Source: Nitrospinaceae bacterium
Lineage (GTDB): Bacteria > Nitrospinota > Nitrospinia > Nitrospinales > Nitrospinaceae
DNA: 64,000 nucleotides
NCBI GenBank assembly: GCA_965223665.1
Contig: OZ245011.1
Location: forward strand, 3,296,001 to 3,360,000
Reading direction: 5' to 3'
In this document: positions 3,338-52,096 of the stretch, in pieces
Layout of the letters: each line of letters starts with the position of its first letter
How positions within the stretch are numbered: the stretch's first letter is position 1
Made by a program: the position numbers and the translations under genes
The notes under the pieces: model-generated
What the model saw: only the letters and a program-made list of their open reading frames with translations
Databases searched by the model: none
Told to the model about the DNA's origin: nothing

Positions 3338-5767
3338 TTAGGAGACCGTGTCTAAGGCGCTGGATTTTTCAGTAAAAGTCAATTCATCTCCATCCAGGCC
3401 AACCTCAATTACGCCATTTGATTTAAATCTACCTTTAAGCATCTCATCAGATAAAACATCCTCTAAATGCTTTTGTATAGCGCGTTTAAGCGGTCGGGCT
3501 CCAAAATTTTTATCATATCCTTTCTCAGCCAGCCATTTTTTGGCTTCATCAGAAATATCAAGAGTTAAGCCTTGTTGAATTAACTGCTGATTCAGCTGTT
3601 GAATTTGAATATCCAAAATTTGGGTCACATTTTCCAAAGTTAATGGCTTAAATACGACTATATCGCTTAATCGATTCAAAAACTCTGGGTTGAAAGTCTT
3701 CCTGAGATCCTGTTTGAGGTCCTTTTCCATTTTATCAAAGCTCATATCCATGTCGTTATTATGGAATCCCAAAGAACCTTTATCTAGCATTTTGGAGCTA
3801 ATATTGGATGTTAAAATGATCACTGTATTTTTAAAATCTATATTACGCCCATAGCTATCAGTCAATCTACCATCATCCATAATTTGTAGAAGTAAATGGT
3901 AAACATCAGGGTTTGCTTTTTCAATTTCGTCAAAAAGAACAACAGAATATGGTTTTCGCCGCACTTTTTCTGTTAATTGACCCCCTTCTTCATAACCAAC
4001 ATAACCAGGAGGGGCACCCGTTAACCTTGAAACATTAAATTTCTCCATATATTCTGACATATCCAACCGAATTAGTGCGTCTCTCTCGCCAAATAAAAAT
4101 TCAGCGAGGGCACCTGCCAGTTCAGTTTTACCCACCCCAGTGGGTCCTAAAAAGAGAAAAGTTCCAATGGGACGGCGCATATCCTTTAAACCAGAACGAG
4201 ATCGGCGAATTGCCTTTGTAATTGCCTCGATGGCTTCTTCCTGTCCAACAATTTTACCTGCAAGTTCCTCACCCATATTGAGCAAGCGAGATGATTCCTT
4301 TTCCTCGATACGGTTGAGAGGAATTCCAGTCATACTGGATACAACAGATGCAATATCTTCTTCCGTAATGCAGGGTTCTTGTAATTGATTTTCTTCATCC
4401 CATTTTGCTTTTGCTTGATCTAACTTGGAACGAAGATCTTCTTCTTTATCTCTTAACTCAACTGCTTTTTCAAATTCCTGATTTTCGATTCTAATTTTCT
4501 TTTCTCGAACCAAAGAATCAATTTCACGTTGAATATTTTTCATTTCTGGAGATTGGGTTGCTTTACGTAACCTTACACGCGAACCAGCTTCATCAATTAC
4601 GTCAATGGCTTTATCAGGCAAAAATCGATCACTAATATATCTATCAGCAAAACGGACTGCAGTTACAATGGCATAATCAGTGATTTTTGCTTTGTGGTGA
4701 ACCTCATAAGGCACCTTGAGTCCGCGAATAATTTCGATCGTTTCATCCACGGAAGGTGGATTAACAATAATTGGCTGGAACCTTCGTTCGAGAGCTCCAT
4801 TTTTTTCAATATATTTTCTGTATTCTTCCAAAGTGGTTGCACCAATGCACTGAATTTCACCGCGAGATAATGCTGGTTTCAGCATATTCGAGGCATCTAC
4901 GGAGCCTTCGGCAGCGCCTGCGCCCACCAAAGTATGGAGTTCATCAATGAATAGGATAACGCTTTCATTTTGGATGATCTCCTTCATGATTCCTTTTAAC
5001 CTTGCTTCAAATTGACCACGGTATTTGGTTCCAGCAATTAGAGAACCTAAATCTAAAGAAACCACACGCTTATCAAATAAACTGTCCGGAACTTCTCGCT
5101 CTACAATAAGTTGAGCAAGTCCTTCTACAATGGCAGTTTTACCTACACCAGGCTCACCAATCAAAACCGGATTATTTTTTGTGCGGCGACTTAAAATTTG
5201 AATCACTCTTTCAATTTCTTTGCTGCGGCCAATTATAGGATCAAGCTTTCCAGCTAAAGCCATTTGGGTTAAATCACGACTAAACTCATCAAGAGTGGGT
5301 GTTTTGCCGGCTTCCCGGGTGGTTTCCCCAGGTTCTTTAAACATTTCAACAAGTTTTTCTTTTACATCATCGAAATACATACCAAAGCTATTTAATACTC
5401 GGCAAGCCACTCCTTCTTTTTCTTTTAACAAACCAAGCAATAAATGCTCGGTTCCAATATAATTGTGGTTAAGGGAACGCGCTTCTTCCACCGCAAATTC
5501 GAGCACTTTTTTTGCTCTGGAGGTAAAAGGAATATCTCCTATTACTAAGGAGTTTGAACTGCGCGGGAGGTTTTTCTCTAACTCTTGCTTGATTTGACTT
5601 AAGTCCACCCCAGATTTTTGAAGTAGTGCAACGGCAATTCCTCCCCCATCCTTGATTACTCCCTGGAGGATGTGTTCCGTTCCCAGATACTCATGTCGAT
5701 ATAATTCCGCTTCTTCTCGGGCTAAAATGATGACTCGGCGTGCTCTTTCTGTAAATCGCTTAAACAT
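3338..5767 (-). CDS. clpC: ATP-dependent Clp protease ATP-binding subunit ClpC
   Basis: Clp N-domain repeats, two AAA+ modules ([16 protein letters not shown]), UVR coiled coil (FEKAVELRD). Confidence 0.95.
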
Positions 5768-43845: not shown

Positions 43846-44721
43846 ATGTTTGAAGGATCTTTTGTAGCGATAGTCACTCCATTTAAAAATGGTAAATTAG
43901 ATGAGCCGTCTTTTCGAAACCTGTTAAAGTTTCATATAGAAAATGGGACTGACGGGATTGTTCCTTGTGGAACTACGGGTGAGTCTGCTACTTTGACGCA
44001 TGAAGAACACCATCAAGTTATTTCAATTGCCGTTGAAGAATGTAAGGGAAAAATTCCTGTGCTAGCTGGGACTGGGTCAAATTCTACCAAGGAGGCGATC
44101 GAACTCACTCAGCATGCGGAAAAGGCTGGGGCTGATGGTGCTCTATTGATAACGCCTTATTACAATAAACCTTCACAGGAAGGTTTGTATCAACATTTTT
44201 TGGCTGTGGCAAAGGAAACCAGCCTACCCATTATTTTGTATAATGTCCCTGGTCGAACCTCTGTGAACATGCTTCCTTCCACAGTGGGTCGATTGGCTAA
44301 GGATCGAAAAAATATTGTTGGTATTAAAGAAGCCTCTGGTTCCTTGGGACAAATTAGTGAAGTGATAGCTTTGTGTGGGGGTGATTTTTCTCTACTTTCT
44401 GGTGATGATGCTTTATTGTGGCCTATTTTGGCAGTGGGTGGGAAGGGTGTTATTTCTGTATCCGCCAATGTAGTTCCTGGTAAGGTCTCAGATTTATGTA
44501 AAAAGGCTAAAAACAATCAAAACGATGACGCCCGTAAATTACACTATCAGTTGATGCATTTAAACAATATCATGTTTATTGATACCAACCCGGTCCCTGT
44601 AAAAGCCGCACTTTCTTTAATGGGGATGATTTCTGCTGAACTTCGTCCTCCTTTGACTGAGTTATCTGAAGAGCATCTCAAAATCCTAAGATCCACTCTG
44701 AAAGAATACGCTTTACTTTAG
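43846..44721 (+). CDS. dapA: 4-hydroxy-tetrahydrodipicolinate synthase
   Basis: GTTGES, PYYNKP, YNVPGRT, GIKEASG. Confidence 0.96.
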   Translation: MFEGSFVAIVTPFKNGKLDEPSFRNLLKFHIENGTDGIVPCGTTGESATLTHEEHHQVISIAVEECKGKIPVLAGTGSNSTKEAIELTQHAEKAGADGALLITPYYNKPSQEGLYQHFLAVAKETSLPIILYNVPGRTSVNMLPSTVGRLAKDRKNIVGIKEASGSLGQISEVIALCGGDFSLLSGDDALLWPILAVGGKGVISVSANVVPGKVSDLCKKAKNNQNDDARKLHYQLMHLNNIMFIDTNPVPVKAALSLMGMISAELRPPLTELSEEHLKILRSTLKEYALL

Positions 44722-44812
44722 TCGACTTTTCATCTTCAATAATAAAAATTTCTTAAAATGTATTGATTTCAATTTTTAATGTCCTGAAGTTAATTAATAA
44801 GGAGGTTGAGTT

Positions 44813-45619
44813 TTGTTAAGAATAGGTGTGATTGGTGCGGCAGGGCGCATGGGTAGGACCATCGTTTCATGTATTGAGGATACGCCGGATGCAGATATTG
44901 GGTGTGGAACAGAAATGGCTGGTAATCCTTTTTTGGGGCAAGATGTGGGAGAATTAGCTGGTTTTGGAAAAAAAAATGTTTTAGTTACTGAGGATTTAGG
45001 TAAAGCAATCAATACTTGTGATGCAATTATTGATTTTACCACTCCTGAATCGAGCATGAATACCCTCCGTGTGGTGAAGGAGCATAATAAATCTGTAGTT
45101 TTTGGAACAACCGGATTTTCTGATAAGCAAAGATCTGAAATTTCTGAGGCTACTCAATCCATTCGATGTGTTTTGGCTCCCAACATGAGTATTGGTGTTA
45201 ATGTTCTATTTAAAATAGTTGGAGATGTGGCAAAAATATTAGGAGATGCGTATGATGTTGAAATAGTGGAAGCACATCATAAATTTAAAAAGGACGCTCC
45301 TAGTGGAACTGCTGTGCGAATTTCTGAAATTATTGCCGAGAGCTTAAAACGGGATTTAAGTGAGGTAGGGGTTTATGGACGTCATGGTTTTAGTGAAGGC
45401 CGAGGTGACAAAGATATTGGAGTGCATACAGTTCGTGCAGGGGATATAGTGGGAGAGCATCGAGTCATGTTTGGGGGAATGGGTGAAACATTGGAAGTGT
45501 TCCACAGAGCCCAAAGCCGACAAACATTTGCTCGTGGAGCCGTACGTGCCGCGCAATGGATTATTCACCAACCGCCGGGTTTATATGATATGCAAGATGT
45601 ATTAGGTTTGAGAGATTAA
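44813..45619 (+). CDS. dapB: 4-hydroxy-tetrahydrodipicolinate reductase
   Basis: GAAGRMG, EAHHKFKKDAPSGTA, RAGDIVGEH. Confidence 0.96.
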   Translation: MLRIGVIGAAGRMGRTIVSCIEDTPDADIGCGTEMAGNPFLGQDVGELAGFGKKNVLVTEDLGKAINTCDAIIDFTTPESSMNTLRVVKEHNKSVVFGTTGFSDKQRSEISEATQSIRCVLAPNMSIGVNVLFKIVGDVAKILGDAYDVEIVEAHHKFKKDAPSGTAVRISEIIAESLKRDLSEVGVYGRHGFSEGRGDKDIGVHTVRAGDIVGEHRVMFGGMGETLEVFHRAQSRQTFARGAVRAAQWIIHQPPGLYDMQDVLGLRD

Positions 45620-45621
45620 TT

Positions 45622-46389
45622 ATGGGTTTTTGGAAATCAAATTGGAATCGCCGATTTTTTTTGAAAGCGTCTTCTTTATCTTTGGCAAGTTTTTTGTTTC
45701 CAAAGAAAGGTGGGGGAACAGTTAATTTTCAAAATAATAAAAATATACCTTCCAACTATATACAAAACCGCGACACCCCGGGATTCTATATTCGAAGTGC
45801 AAACCCTTTTTTAGGAGTTGATATTAATAAATGGTCTTTGGGAATTAAGGGGATTGTGAAACAGCCTTTAACTTTGGGTTATGAAGATTTATTTGGATTT
45901 CCCAGAGTTTCTCAAGTATCGCGGTTAAAATGTGTGGAATGTTGGTCTGCCAAGGCGGAGTGGGAAGGATTTCGTTTCCAAGAGATTGTAAAGCGGGTGC
46001 AACCGGACCCAAAGGCTAAATATGTAACTTTTCAATCTGCTGACTCTTATTATGAAAGTTTTCTTTTGGAAGAGTTGTTGAGACCCAGAGTTTTATTTGT
46101 ATTGCGAATGAATGGAAAGCCTCTATCAAAAGATCATGGGTTTCCTTTAAGGCTTATTGCTCCTTTTAAGTATGGATACAAAAATGTTAAATATATTACA
46201 AGTATAGAGTTTTCAGAAAAACGTAGCCGAAATTATTGGGCAGACTATGGACCTTATTCAGTGGATGGAACGATTCAACCGGGAATTGATCATCCTCTGG
46301 ATTATAAGAAAAAACCCTTACCTATTAATGGAGGAGAGGTCTTCCATTTTTTCGATAAACGCCCTCCCAAATCTCCAAATGGCATATGA
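45622..46389 (+). CDS. Sulfite-oxidase-family molybdoenzyme (MsrP-like)
   Basis: Tat-like RRFFLK, LKCVECWS Mo-ligand Cys, HGFPLRLIAPFKYGYKNVK. Confidence 0.82.
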   Translation: MGFWKSNWNRRFFLKASSLSLASFLFPKKGGGTVNFQNNKNIPSNYIQNRDTPGFYIRSANPFLGVDINKWSLGIKGIVKQPLTLGYEDLFGFPRVSQVSRLKCVECWSAKAEWEGFRFQEIVKRVQPDPKAKYVTFQSADSYYESFLLEELLRPRVLFVLRMNGKPLSKDHGFPLRLIAPFKYGYKNVKYITSIEFSEKRSRNYWADYGPYSVDGTIQPGIDHPLDYKKKPLPINGGEVFHFFDKRPPKSPNGI

Positions 46390-47111
46390 ATCCATGGCGA
46401 AAACTATTTTCGTTAATCGTTTTTTTATTTTTTTGTTCCTGTTCTGATAACTCAGTCGAACAAATTTCTGTAAAAATTCCCCCTAACTTAAAAGTTCCTG
46501 AAGAAATGGTTTACATTCCTGAAGGCGAATTTGTATATGGTCATCCTAGCGATCCTAAAACAAGTTTAGGAAAAAAAGTTCATTTGCCAGCTTACTTCAT
46601 TGACAAGTTTGAAGTGACCCGTGGAGATTATCAAACAGCAAACACAAAGTATTGGGTCACTCCGGGCAAGGAACTTTTCCCAGTAAATTTAGTTAGCTTT
46701 TTAGAAGCGAGTACTTATTGCCAATCTTTGGGTAAACGGTTGCCGACAGAAAAAGAATGGGAAAAGGCGGCTCGAGGGATAGATGCCAGAAAATGGCCTT
46801 GGAAGCAGTTTCAAGAGCATCCTAATAATGGATTTTCAGGATTTATTCCTGAACCGGTGGATAAAAGGGATGATTGGATCAGCCCATATGGTATTTATGG
46901 AATGGGACATAATGTTTGGGAATGGACTGTGGATGATTATGATTTTAATGGGATGCCAGGAACTGAAAAAGGTAAATATAAAGTCATCCGTGGAGGGCTT
47001 TTTCAATCCCACTTAACAATAAAATTCTCTGCGACTTGGGCTAGAAATTATATGGAACCGCAAGCACGTTATAATTTTTTGGGATTTAGATGTGCTAAGG
47101 ATCTTGATTGA
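46386..47111 (+). CDS. Formylglycine-generating enzyme (SUMF1/FGE-sulfatase) domain lipoprotein
   Basis: Lipobox-like CSC, IDKFEVT, RLPTEKEWEKAARG, NVWEW, GFRCA. Confidence 0.88.
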   Translation: MNPWRKLFSLIVFLFFCSCSDNSVEQISVKIPPNLKVPEEMVYIPEGEFVYGHPSDPKTSLGKKVHLPAYFIDKFEVTRGDYQTANTKYWVTPGKELFPVNLVSFLEASTYCQSLGKRLPTEKEWEKAARGIDARKWPWKQFQEHPNNGFSGFIPEPVDKRDDWISPYGIYGMGHNVWEWTVDDYDFNGMPGTEKGKYKVIRGGLFQSHLTIKFSATWARNYMEPQARYNFLGFRCAKDLD

Positions 47112-47191: not shown

Positions 47192-47225
47192 AAAAAAAGG
47201 GCTGCCAAAACATTTGGCAGCCCTT
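47192..47225 (-). terminator. Intrinsic terminator
   Basis: Inverted repeat AAGGGCTGCCAAA/TTTGGCAGCCCTT running into a T7 tract on the minus strand. Confidence 0.9.
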
Positions 47226-47255
47226 AGAAAACTATGGAACCTCCGGGAAACTGAA

Positions 47256-47300
47256 TTAACAATTTCCTACGGAGGTTCCAAGTCTACAATCGCTAGACAA
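47256..47300 (-). CDS. Putative 14-aa peptide MSSDCRLGTSVGNC
   Basis: TTG start 7 nt after GGAGG within AAAGGAGGTGATCCA; TAA stop; too short for the ORF track. Confidence 0.45.
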   Translation of the reverse strand: MSSDCRLGTSVGNC

Positions 47301-47596
47301 TGGATCACCTCCTTTCATCCAGGGGGTGAACATCCGCGCCGAGACTCCCCTGGCGCCCCAAACGCTTCACTATAATTAGCTATAGATTGTACTATTTTTT
47401 TGAAAAAGTCAAAATGGAAAATTTAGCCAGGTGGCCCATTGGATCTAGTGAGATATCTATTTGATTTCTATCGAGAACTAACAAATTAAATCTTAATGTT
47501 GCGGTGTGATTTTTCCAAATTTTGGTGTTTTTTGTAGAGCAAATTTTTTATTAATTGGATCCTTTAGTTTTTTGCAATTTCCCCAAAAATTGAATT

Positions 47597-47893
47597 TTAA
47601 TAAATCTTCTTGTTTTTTCTTTTTTTGTAAAAAGCTTTTTGACATTCGGCTGAACAATATTTTGCGGCACGATGTCTGGGATGAAATTCCTTTTCACAAA
47701 CCACACAGAACTTGTTATAAAATTTTTGTTTGGGTTGTCTGGGTTTAGCATCTCGCATTTTGGTAATCGTGCGTAAACCTTTTATCGTAGATTTTTGTTG
47801 GAGGAAATTTAGTTTTTCTTTTTCCAGGTCTCTATACTTTAAAACTTTTTTTAATTTGCCGTTTTTATCATAGACTTTACACTCATAAATCAT
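47597..47893 (-). CDS. Small basic protein with C-terminal zinc finger
   Basis: CVVC-x13-CSAEC motif; very Lys/Arg rich. Confidence 0.7.
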   Translation of the reverse strand: MIYECKVYDKNGKLKKVLKYRDLEKEKLNFLQQKSTIKGLRTITKMRDAKPRQPKQKFYNKFCVVCEKEFHPRHRAAKYCSAECQKAFYKKRKNKKIY

Positions 47894-50078: not shown

Positions 50079-50672
50079 ATGCATCTGACCAAACGGCAAC
50101 GGGAGATTTATGAATATTTAAAAGAGCATATTCGTGAAAAGGGATATGCTCCTAGTATTATGGAAATCGGTGAGGAGTTCCATTTATCGTCTCCAGCCAC
50201 TGTCCATAAGCATTTAAGTCACTTAGAGGTTAAGGGGTTGATTCAACGTAAACATAATATGAGCCGAGCGATTGAACTCGTAGATGAAGAATCTGCAGTT
50301 CCTGAATATCATTTATTAGGACATATTGTTGCGGGTAAACCCATTGAGACGTTTGAAATGCGAGAAATGGTTTCTTTATTTCCTGCGGCACAAGATAAGA
50401 ATATTTTTGTGCTACGTGTTAAAGGGGATTCGATGATCGATGACCATATACAAGATGGGGATTTTGTTATCGTTGAAGGGCGAGAGGATGCGAATAACGG
50501 GGAAACAGTTGTTGCTTTACTCGATAATGAATGTGCAACTTTAAAGCGTTTTTATCGTGAAGGTGATCGTGTGCGGCTACAACCTGCAAACGAAGCTATG
50601 CAGCCTATTTTTATCAAACAAGGCGATCTTAAAATTCAAGGTGTGGTTATTGGTGTCATGCGTAAATTCTGA
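50079..50672 (+). CDS. lexA: SOS repressor LexA
   Basis: wHTH (LTKRQREI, SPATVHKHL), Ala-Gly cleavage site (VAG), GDSM Ser and TLK Lys; GAGGAGG RBS. Confidence 0.95.
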   Translation: MHLTKRQREIYEYLKEHIREKGYAPSIMEIGEEFHLSSPATVHKHLSHLEVKGLIQRKHNMSRAIELVDEESAVPEYHLLGHIVAGKPIETFEMREMVSLFPAAQDKNIFVLRVKGDSMIDDHIQDGDFVIVEGREDANNGETVVALLDNECATLKRFYREGDRVRLQPANEAMQPIFIKQGDLKIQGVVIGVMRKF

Positions 50673-50710
50673 TGAGCGTCAGAGGTAGAAAATATTTTTG
50701 AGAAGGCTGA

Positions 50711-52096
50711 ATGAATTTAACAAATCAGAGAGATATGGCAAATAAGCGTTTGCGCCCTTGTATAGAGAGAAAGATTTTACATATTGATATGGATGCATTT
50801 TTTGTATCGGTAGAGCAGGTGTTGGATCCCTCTTTAAAAGGGAAGCCGGTGATAGTTGGCGGCCTGGGGGGACGTGGTGTGGTTTCGGCGGCTTCTTATG
50901 AAGCGCGATCCTATGGAGTGCACTCAGCAATGCCCATGACACGAGCGCGACGTTTATGTCCGCAAGCTATTTTTCTCAGTGGTTCTCACGGTAAATATAG
51001 TGAGTTTTCTGCACGTATTTTTGAAATCTTAGATCGTTATTCACCGTTAGTTGAACCGATGTCTTTGGATGAGGCTTACCTTGACTTGACCGGTTGCGAA
51101 CGGTTGCAGGGTCCAATATTAAAGGCAGCAACGCGTCTTCACAATGAAATTCAAGAACGTGTTGGTATCAATGCATCTATTGGTATTGCCTCGAATAAAC
51201 TCATGGCAAAAGTGGCATCCAACTTGGCAAAGCCTAACGGAATGTTGCGTGTGTTGCCGGGACAGGAGGAACGGTTTCTGGCACCATTTCCAATTAAGTG
51301 TATCCCTGGCATTGGACCTAAAATGGCGACTCAATTGAAACGTATGGGAATCCAGAAAGTGAGTCAATTAGCATTGCTGTCGTGTGAGTTGTTAGAAAAA
51401 GCTTATGGGATATGGGGCAGAGGTTTATATGAAAGAGCGCATGGTATTTGCCGATCCCCAGTATTAAAGCGAGAAGAAACTCGATCTATCAGCCATGAGA
51501 CGACTTTGAAAGAAGACTCAGAAGACCCGCAATTTTTGGAATCGAAACTTAGTTATCTTGTAGAAAAAGCTGGATCGCGCTTGCGCGCATCGATCTTGCG
51601 TGCACGTTGCGTTACGCTCAAACTGCGTTATTCCGATTTTAAGACAGTCACTCGTTCTTTTACTTTGACTCAACCAGTGGACGAGGATTATGTGATTTTA
51701 CAAACCGTATTGGGCTTATTTCGAAAGTCGTTTACTCGACGAACTCGTGTTCGATTGTTAGGAGTGGCATTGACGTCGTTATCAGAAGTGACGGGGAGAA
51801 TTGCTCAGCGCGGAACTAACAGCCCTGGTTTGATGATGCAGGAAGAGCTTCAATTGGGAAGGGAAGAGTTGATTCGTCACCCTCTACCAGAAGTACAGAT
51901 TCGAGAAGAGAGTTCCAGCCAAACTGAAGAGATTTTGCATGCGATTAGAAATTCTCTCTCTCAAAGAGGGGCGCAGATGGAATTGTTTGAGTCTTTGGAA
52001 GATCAACGCTGGCAAAAGTTATATGCAGGAATTGATGGCATTCGTAAAAAATACGGCTTCCGTTCTATTTTACGCGCTTCCAGTCGATGGAATTGA
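50711..52096 (+). CDS. dinB: DNA polymerase IV
   Basis: HIDMDAFF, SYEAR, SLDEAYLD, KPNG, VRLLGV; clamp-binding-like QMELF. Alternative start at 50735. Confidence 0.93.
   Translation: MNLTNQRDMANKRLRPCIERKILHIDMDAFFVSVEQVLDPSLKGKPVIVGGLGGRGVVSAASYEARSYGVHSAMPMTRARRLCPQAIFLSGSHGKYSEFSARIFEILDRYSPLVEPMSLDEAYLDLTGCERLQGPILKAATRLHNEIQERVGINASIGIASNKLMAKVASNLAKPNGMLRVLPGQEERFLAPFPIKCIPGIGPKMATQLKRMGIQKVSQLALLSCELLEKAYGIWGRGLYERAHGICRSPVLKREETRSISHETTLKEDSEDPQFLESKLSYLVEKAGSRLRASILRARCVTLKLRYSDFKTVTRSFTLTQPVDEDYVILQTVLGLFRKSFTRRTRVRLLGVALTSLSEVTGRIAQRGTNSPGLMMQEELQLGREELIRHPLPEVQIREESSSQTEEILHAIRNSLSQRGAQMELFESLEDQRWQKLYAGIDGIRKKYGFRSILRASSRWN

Follow-up and report, generated by a model that had tools for sequence, protein, structure and literature searches.

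A putative rre-type small mRNA with an extended Shine-Dalgarno sequence and a predicted pseudoknot domain in Nitrospinaceae

In design, the RNA discussed here comes closest to a class described from Alphaproteobacteria, the rre small mRNAs (Hahn et al., RNA Biol 2016/17, PMC5711450; statements on rre RNAs refer to the passages of that paper available to us). rreB of Bradyrhizobiaceae is a 165-nucleotide (nt) mRNA that carries a 17-nt complement of the 16S rRNA 3′ end, followed by a GTG start and a small open reading frame (sORF) of 14 codons, and rreR of Rhodobacterales encodes 18 amino acids (aa); across the class, the complement measures 16–17 nt, the canonical Shine-Dalgarno (SD) sequence included. 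rreB was found mainly with 30S subunits, to which it binds tightly and with which it co-sediments, and it is weakly translated, an effect to which the length of the SD and the GTG start each contribute. Its decay depends on the start codon, replacement of which yields a more stable RNA, and its overproduction had no effect on growth, ribosomes greatly outnumbering the RNA. Analogues were reported from Caulobacterales, Rhizobiales, Rhodobacterales and Rhodospirillales only, and the function was called elusive (PMC5711450). Here, we describe an element on the minus strand of a 64,000-nt stretch of a Nitrospinaceae bacterium genome (contig OZ245011.1, positions 3,296,001 to 3,360,000; hereafter the window, whose numbering is used throughout). 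Judged by its sequence, it is quite probably an rre-type small mRNA, monocistronic and ~184 nt long. The original prediction, made from the letters of the window, had recognised no named family for it, a statement that no longer stands given the match of its architecture to rreB and rreR. The parts of the element are as follows.

47192..47375, minus strand: whole inferred transcript, ~184 nt; 5′ end inferred, 3′ end at the T run of the terminator
47407..47412, minus strand: −35-like box TTGACT, with an ambiguous −10 hexamer (CAATCT, 17-nt spacer)
47336..47365, minus strand: hairpin P1 (GCGUUUGGGGC / GUCUCGGCGC) with a 9-nt loop, GCCAGGGGA; shows covariation
47347..47353, minus strand: predicted pseudoknot 5′ strand CCAGGGG, within the P1 loop, pairing with 47319-47325
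47319..47325, minus strand: predicted pseudoknot 3′ strand CCCCUGG, part of the C-rich UCACCCCCUGG, which could pair with the SD as an alternative
47301..47316, minus strand: extended SD GAAAGGAGGUGAUCCA, a 16-nt perfect complement of the host's own 16S 3′ tail
47256..47300, minus strand: mini-ORF with UUG start, 14 codons (MSSDCRLGTSVGNC) and UAA, conserved in 46 homologs
47235..47280, minus strand: hairpin H, made up of an inner stem and an 11-base-pair (bp) outer stem, UGGAACCUCCG/CGGAGGUUCCA, and starting at ORF codon 8
47192..47225, minus strand: intrinsic terminator with a 13-bp stem (47225-47197), a 3-nt loop and a seven-U run

What places this locus beside the rre RNAs? At the level of sequence, rre units are recognised by a complement of at least 16 nt to the organism's own 16S rRNA, an sORF of 14–18 codons directly behind it and conservation within the clade, and each of these traits is found here. 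The minus strand reads GAAAGGAGGTGATCCA from 47316 to 47301, the plus strand TGGATCACCTCCTTTC from 47301 to 47316, and the host's single 16S gene, located by its Rfam SSU match, ends in ...GGCTGGATCACCTCCTTTCTA / ...GCGGCTGGATCACCTCCTTTCTA. Because this 3′ end was read from the same genome, the complementarity is to the organism's own rRNA tail. With one mismatch allowed at most, the 16-mer has just two sites in the 4.35-megabase genome, namely the element and the antisense of the 16S 3′ end. When the in-register complement length was measured at all 6,903 GGAGG sites of the genome, it amounted to 5 nt at 3871 sites, 6 nt at 1840, 7 nt at 702, 8 nt at 367, 9 nt at 90, 10 nt at 24, 11 nt at 6 and 12 nt at a single one; beyond this lie the element, with 16 nt, and the rRNA antisense, with 26 nt. 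The 16-nt complementarity is thus far above chance and a genome-wide outlier, and the perfect complement to the 16S 3′ end that the original prediction had noted is borne out both by the host's own 16S gene and by these counts. The calculated duplex with the 16S tail reaches -30.2 kcal/mol for the extended SD, compared to -9.2 for AGGAGG. On the minus strand, the C-rich UCACCCCCUGG (47329-47319), the dinucleotide AU, the extended SD GAAAGGAGGUGAUCCA (47316-47301) and UUG (47300-47298) follow one another directly.

The element is kept across the order to which the window's organism belongs. A BLAST search with the 216-nt region gave matches in 31 of 41 genomes, and of the 120 genomes searched from the phylum, 86 were matched by the covariance model R1, whose match at this locus spans contig positions 3343230-3343370 (47230-47370 of the window); the window's own genome is counted in both cases. 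Without it, R1 matched 85 of 101 genomes of the order (19/20, 57/70, 6/6 and 3/5 in families f1, f2, f3 and f4, respectively) and none of 18 genomes from five families outside the order. Where completeness reached 90% or more, a match was present in 48 of 57 genomes; in 84 of the 86 genomes the match was single, and it was nearly always full-length. The exact SD-plus-start pattern AAGGAGGTGATCCNDTG occurred in 71 of the 120 genomes, with none outside the order and none for the reversed control, and a pattern scan revealed the same element type in two species records, Nitrospinota and Nitrospina. Conservation does not extend to the surroundings: in 54 flanking ORFs at 29 loci, no neighbour gene was common across families, and flanking genes vary by family (FGE-sulfatase, HflX-like GTPase, GatC, sensor kinases). 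For the comparisons below, alignment A1, trimmed to A2, comprises 28 of the 30 BLAST loci, loci L028 and L031 being left out for an insertion of ~70 nt. Because the pairing between the P1 loop and the C-rich linker hardly varies in A2, the homolog set was enlarged to 46 sequences (A4), consisting of 25 first loci, 19 of 20 divergent loci and the two named records; the near-duplicates L004, L008 and L011, the two loci with the insertion and the partial match L159 were left out. In metagenome contigs of the sample that yielded the window's genome, other organisms match only the core of the element (47293-47338) and then diverge, with ends like those of relatives' versions, and therefore several carriers appear to co-occur in this sample.

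The mini-ORF is tightly conserved in its placement, and the complement in its sequence. AGGAGGTG.TC is unchanged in 28 of 28 homologs in A2. Across the 46 homologs, GGAGG and the start codon are separated by 7 nt in 44 and by 9 nt in 2, the start is TTG in 34, ATG in 10 and GTG in 2, and the frame measures 14 codons in 38 and 13–15 codons in 45. The stop codon lies within the loop of hairpin H in all 46 sequences and at one alignment column in 42, with the other two frames lacking comparable regularity. In the window, UUG occupies 47300-47298 and UAA 47258-47256. The original prediction of a super-SD followed by a short ORF is thus supported by start spacing, length and stop position alike. 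Translated, the 46 sequences give the consensus M-S-S-H-S-I-K/R-G-A-S-G-x-x-C. In the lineage with ATG starts, the peptide reads MLSDS..., and Ser at residue 3 is encoded by TCT as opposed to AGY in most lineages; this change of codon family hints at selection on the peptide or its decoding, a reading limited by the fact that codons 8–11 are also under the constraint of stem H. The lineage in question (L154-L163; genera g6 and g22, family f2; 10 of the 46 sequences) replaced TTG by ATG and changed codon 2 while keeping the 14-codon length and Ser3, and represents a natural experiment on the weak-start rule. A longer in-frame ORF from an upstream ATG (47256-47333, 25 aa) was rejected, since no SD precedes it and the aligned homologs do not share its ATG.

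The second line of evidence is structural. In A2, 10 of the 12 pairs of P1 show changes on both sides, as do 3 of the 10 pairs of H, of whose cells 92.5% are paired across the 28 sequences. None of 500 shuffles reached the covariation score of the whole structure, and sliding the 3′ partner by 1–3 columns lowered pairing to 42–58%. Conservation and covariation in relatives, which the original prediction had named as a check on itself, are therefore found: P1 and H covary, and the element is kept across the order. Pairing of the P1 loop with the linker (CCAGGGG:CCCCUGG), nearly invariant in A2, was followed in A4 by a search in each sequence, in which all 46 homologs yielded an uninterrupted loop:linker helix of 5 bp or more, and 41 of them one of 6 bp or more. 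Another pairing was the top-scoring helix in 5 of the 46; CAGGG and CCCUG nonetheless occur in every one. Matched variants appear on the two strands: CCGGGG/CCCCGG, with an A-U pair lost from both (5/46 sequences); UUCAGGGA/UCCCUGAG, with two compensatory changes (1/46); and CGGGGAA/UUCCCUG (3/46), as well as G.U variants. Together, these variants make a pseudoknot between the P1 loop and the C-rich strand likely. In L028 (1388-1514) and L031, both from genus g12, a ~70-nt GC-rich and probably folded insertion separates P1 from the C-rich strand; by eye, both loci keep the P1 loop GCCAGGGGA and a CCCCCUG strand despite it.

The helices on which the original prediction built a folding switch can all be read in the window: the upstream strand TCACCCCCT at 47321-47329 (minus strand) that could mask the SD, CCAGGGG (47347-47353) facing CCCCTGG (47319-47325), the 11-bp stem TGGAACCTCCG/CGGAGGTTCCA (47235-47245 with 47270-47280) and the SD-masking hairpin GGAGGT/ACCTCC + TCCA/TGGA + GTCTA/TAGAC. 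How they fared in homologs differs, and the logic of the switch finds partial support. P1, the loop:C-rich pairing and H are conserved, and competing helices around the SD are indeed present. The 5′ arm of H, which coincides with codons 8–11 of the mini-ORF, has the SD as its alternative partner; for this mask, 94.3% of cells are pairable, yet it shows no covariation, because the SD is invariant, and does no better than shuffles. As a conserved mask, the pairing of TCACCCCCT with the SD has weak support, its four outer pairs being broken in 4–10 of the 28 sequences. GCGCC/GGCGC was rejected as a conserved competitor helix: it does exist in the window, but in the 28 homologs only 67% of its cells pair, compared to a mean of 71% in shuffles; as far as these sequences tell, this helix is particular to the window's genome. 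Calculated energies favor the open arrangement, with -15.0 kcal/mol for the pseudoknot versus -11.5 for the C-rich strand on the SD, and -29.0 kcal/mol for hairpin H versus -19.9 for the SD-masking hairpin formed with its 5′ arm.

Is this a transcript of its own? The original prediction had proposed a structured, terminator-bounded stand-alone RNA from the minus strand, and the terminator, the fold and the convergent orientation of the downstream gene (46386-47111, plus strand) agree with it. In homologs, the terminator stem shows covariation (alignment columns 175-205). The minus-strand RNA, taken as 191 nt, folds at -85.8 kcal/mol (z = -6.59), and none of 200 shuffles folded equally well. 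At the other end, homology in A1 and A2 begins at GTGAAGCG (47370), and on the minus strand GUGAAGCG (from 47370) lies ~35 nt downstream of the TTGACT box. By reading, TTGAC recurs ~95–108 nt upstream of GGAGG at 23 of 30 homologous loci.

Several observations weigh against assigning the element to the rre class. Beyond the box formed by SD and start codon, R1 detects no homology in sequence or structure to the alphaproteobacterial units: these scored 13–27 bits and Gemmatimonadota units up to 35, as compared to 130.3 for the window. Three other Nitrospinota-type loci among the 100 loci searched scored 50–129 bits. A consensus promoter scan returned neither a sigma-70 consensus nor a consensus −10 hexamer at the locus. 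When nested structures are computed, the SD core has a mean unpaired probability of 0.18 in the full-length RNA and of 0.06 in a nascent RNA cut before the 3′ arm of H; as the SD is mostly paired in such folds, its accessibility would hinge on the pseudoknot, a kind of pairing that lies outside what folding tools evaluate. Binding to 30S, translation and control of decay are, moreover, carried over by analogy from a single alphaproteobacterial model. Lastly, the cmscan comparison with Rfam that the original prediction had suggested gave no match at the site at gathering thresholds, the best permissive match being CC2171 (RF01867), which reached 34.7 bits where its gathering score is 75 (E = 1.5e-5 / 1.9e-5). 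At E <= 1, the same model matched 6 of 14 control genomes (Bacillus, Caulobacter, Synechococcus, Thermus, Deinococcus and Thermotoga), one of them above the cut-off, and the element's match therefore rests largely on SD and terminator. The other 18 permissive Rfam matches (suhB, SAM-II, ALIL and others) represent terminator or noise.

Still, CC2171 deserves a closer look. This Caulobacter sRNA (small RNA) has been validated by Northern blot in Methylorubrum as well, and no condition affecting the alphaproteobacterial sRNA was identified in the passages available to us (bioRxiv 10.1101/2022.01.24.477521). Its consensus starts with ...GAAAGGAGGUGAUCCAGUGUCU, then continues with a hairpin and a terminator, and it has the element's 16 nt, GAAAGGAGGUGAUCCA, with GUG UCU directly behind them. 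From this makeup, CC2171 is most likely the rre RNA of Caulobacter and Methylobacteriaceae. The accessible text of PMC5711450 contains no mention of CC2171 or Rfam, and the passages seen of bioRxiv 10.1101/2022.01.24.477521 draw no such link. None of 17 other rre-like loci passes the CC2171 gathering score, below which the element also falls. In general, weak matches to CC2171 mostly reflect a strong SD and a terminator.

What might such an RNA do? We propose that the pseudoknot between the P1 loop and the C-rich strand would keep the latter off the SD. During transcription, the 5′ arm of H might transiently mask the SD and release it once the 3′ arm is made, and at equilibrium P1, pseudoknot and H would all be formed, with SD and start codon in the open stretch between them; both steps are modeled on the calculated energies. 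The 16-nt SD is long enough to pair along the whole of the free 16S rRNA 3′ tail. If rreB from Bradyrhizobium is a guide, the RNA would bind 30S subunits much more firmly than an ordinary mRNA does, the excess length of the SD together with the non-AUG start would hold translation low, and ribosome engagement at the start codon would set the lifetime of the RNA. The biological output might lie in the peptide, in an action on the ribosome or in the two together. On this sequence evidence, the element is a new lineage-specific rre member to which a putative pseudoknot domain has been added, and the class extends further than had been described.

Several other explanations have to be set against this one. 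The RNA could act as a non-coding decoy or cap, which on idle 30S subunits holds or protects the 3′ tail of 16S rRNA, for instance during starvation or late 30S maturation, the ORF being a by-product of a start codon that is needed to lock the initiation complex. In line with such a role, the 13–16-nt complement is the best-conserved part of the element, the SD box is constant across phyla while the peptides differ completely, the duplex would span the whole free 16S tail, and rreB resides mainly on 30S subunits (PMC5711450). Against it, the ORF is kept closely in its length, in the spacing of its start and in the place of its stop, and its peptide is conserved within the order, down to a Ser residue retained through a change of codon family; the ribosome excess and unchanged growth reported for rreB overproduction (PMC5711450) argue in the same direction. 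We consider a pure decoy unlikely. The original prediction had itself raised an RNA that binds and sequesters 30S subunits. By analogy, the binding half of this idea gains from the closest class, as 30S association was experimentally shown for rreB, while sequestration as the function appears doubtful given that overproduced rreB left growth unaffected (PMC5711450).

Turning from the SD to the C-rich strand, regulatory RNAs with C-rich loops are known to target the SD regions of mRNAs. The C-rich strand CACCCCCUGG, which is nearly invariant and may resemble anti-SD seeds, might likewise act in trans on the SDs of other mRNAs, possibly in a dual-function RNA together with the mini-ORF. Yet this strand has a conserved partner within the molecule, with matched changes, and a trans-acting role would leave the 16-nt SD and the conserved geometry of the ORF unexplained, which makes it very improbable. 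Two further readings are a leader peptide or attenuator acting on a gene downstream and a type I toxin mRNA: the series of short ORF, hairpin and terminator is superficially attenuator-like, and SD-masking folds do recall toxin mRNAs. Against the former, the next gene downstream is convergent, neighbors are unconserved and, by reading, no alternative pairing between H and the terminator was seen. A ribosome-dependent transcription attenuator was rejected on the same grounds, with no co-oriented gene downstream (46386-47111 lies on the plus strand) and neighbors that vary between families. As to a toxin, an analogy drawn by the original prediction, the 14-aa peptide MSSDCRLGTSVGNC is hydrophilic and devoid of a hydrophobic stretch, there is one copy per genome, and no antisense partner was seen, although none was searched for; the analogy falls, and we regard leader peptide, attenuator and toxin alike as extremely unlikely. 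An rre-type small mRNA thus remains the reading we prefer.

Units with the same layout also occur elsewhere. A scan of species genomes for AGGAGGTGATCCNKTGTCTA, grouped by the names of the species records, returned at least 120 stretches (L034-L153). Among the matches listed, 63 belong to Alphaproteobacteria, 43 to Gemmatimonadota, 3 to Gammaproteobacteria, 2 to Nitrospinota and 1 to Planctomycetota, with 4 from unspecified Proteobacteria and 4 unclassified, but the pattern forces TCTA after the start, so that little can be read from these proportions. Among these matches, the start opens a frame of 8 to 56 codons (one being cut by a contig end), typical lengths being 18 codons for the Rhodobacterales type, 21–23 for the Stellaceae type and 11, 14 or 19–21 in Gemmatimonadota, whose listed units have TTG starts. 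A hairpin and a terminator usually follow downstream in the 22 examples examined. The gammaproteobacterial matches listed come from SAR92, Cellvibrionales and Woeseiaceae, and the planctomycetal one from a Phycisphaera record (L152) with 9 codons. With R1 and CC2171 scoring, homology over the whole RNA to alphaproteobacterial or Gemmatimonadota units could not be demonstrated. Relative to what PMC5711450 reports in the passages at hand, the units outside Alphaproteobacteria are new, and a literature search found no later extension of the rre class. One may speculate further that super-SD and mini-ORF units form a multi-phylum, ribosome-directed RNA class whose real target is the 30S subunit, where they would cap, protect or test the free 16S tail of idle or new subunits, the peptide being secondary and the Nitrospinota pseudoknot acting as a gate for offering the SD. 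At present, we find this rather doubtful.

As for the remaining surroundings in the window, a 98-aa ORF just upstream on the same strand (47597-47893, minus strand) has a C-terminal CxxC...CxxC and a Lys-rich tail, like a small zinc-ribbon protein. By eye, the translations of two adjacent plus-strand ORFs within 50079-52096 resemble LexA (197 aa) and, next to it, a DinB-type polymerase (461 aa), and those of upstream ORFs at 43846-45619 resemble DapA and DapB.

Why does this matter? rre RNAs are little-studied mRNAs that bind the ribosome 'too well'; in the literature searched, the founding study is cited by three papers only. Here, the same design is found once per genome across an order of a distant phylum, with a predicted, covarying pseudoknot domain of its own, and look-alikes exist in Gemmatimonadota and elsewhere. 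Conservation in a distant phylum, the gain of a putative pseudoknot and the look-alikes together argue for a general ribosome-related need rather than an alphaproteobacterial curiosity. The Nitrospinota and other units therewith constitute independent families for comparative and experimental work.

Two further systems invite comparison. STAB-SD 5′ stabilizers, as in cry3A of Bacillus thuringiensis and similar mRNAs, hold 30S subunits through SD-like pairing with 16S rRNA and thereby affect RNA stability. Their place is the 5′ untranslated region of long mRNAs, and no start codon follows them at the spacing usual for an SD, whereas the element has a start, a conserved mini-ORF and a predicted transcript of its own. 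In Bacteroidota, a phylum that normally keeps its anti-SD hidden, the extended SD of rpsU (bS21) serves autoregulation of a ribosomal protein; the likeness consists in an unusually long SD on one special gene per genome, and the difference in the product, which here is a 14-aa peptide.

The likeness to rreB and rreR goes further. rreB is a stand-alone small transcript of 165 nt, and the element is predicted to be one of ~184 nt; both carry a contiguous 16–17-nt complement to 16S rRNA that takes in the canonical SD, with a start directly behind it that is usually non-AUG. The sORF has 14 codons in rreB as in the element, compared to 18 in rreR. In each case, a conserved hairpin takes up part of the SD region, the 5′ extension of which is single-stranded, and there is one conserved sORF per clade in a genomic context that is unconserved between clades. 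The two differ in that rreB and rreR come from the four alphaproteobacterial orders covered by PMC5711450, and the element from a different phylum. Its start is UUG instead of GUG, and its complement ends one base before the start, whereas that of the rre RNAs takes in the first base of it. Finally, the element lacks peptide similarity to rreB and rreR and adds to their common design a 5′ hairpin and a predicted pseudoknot domain.

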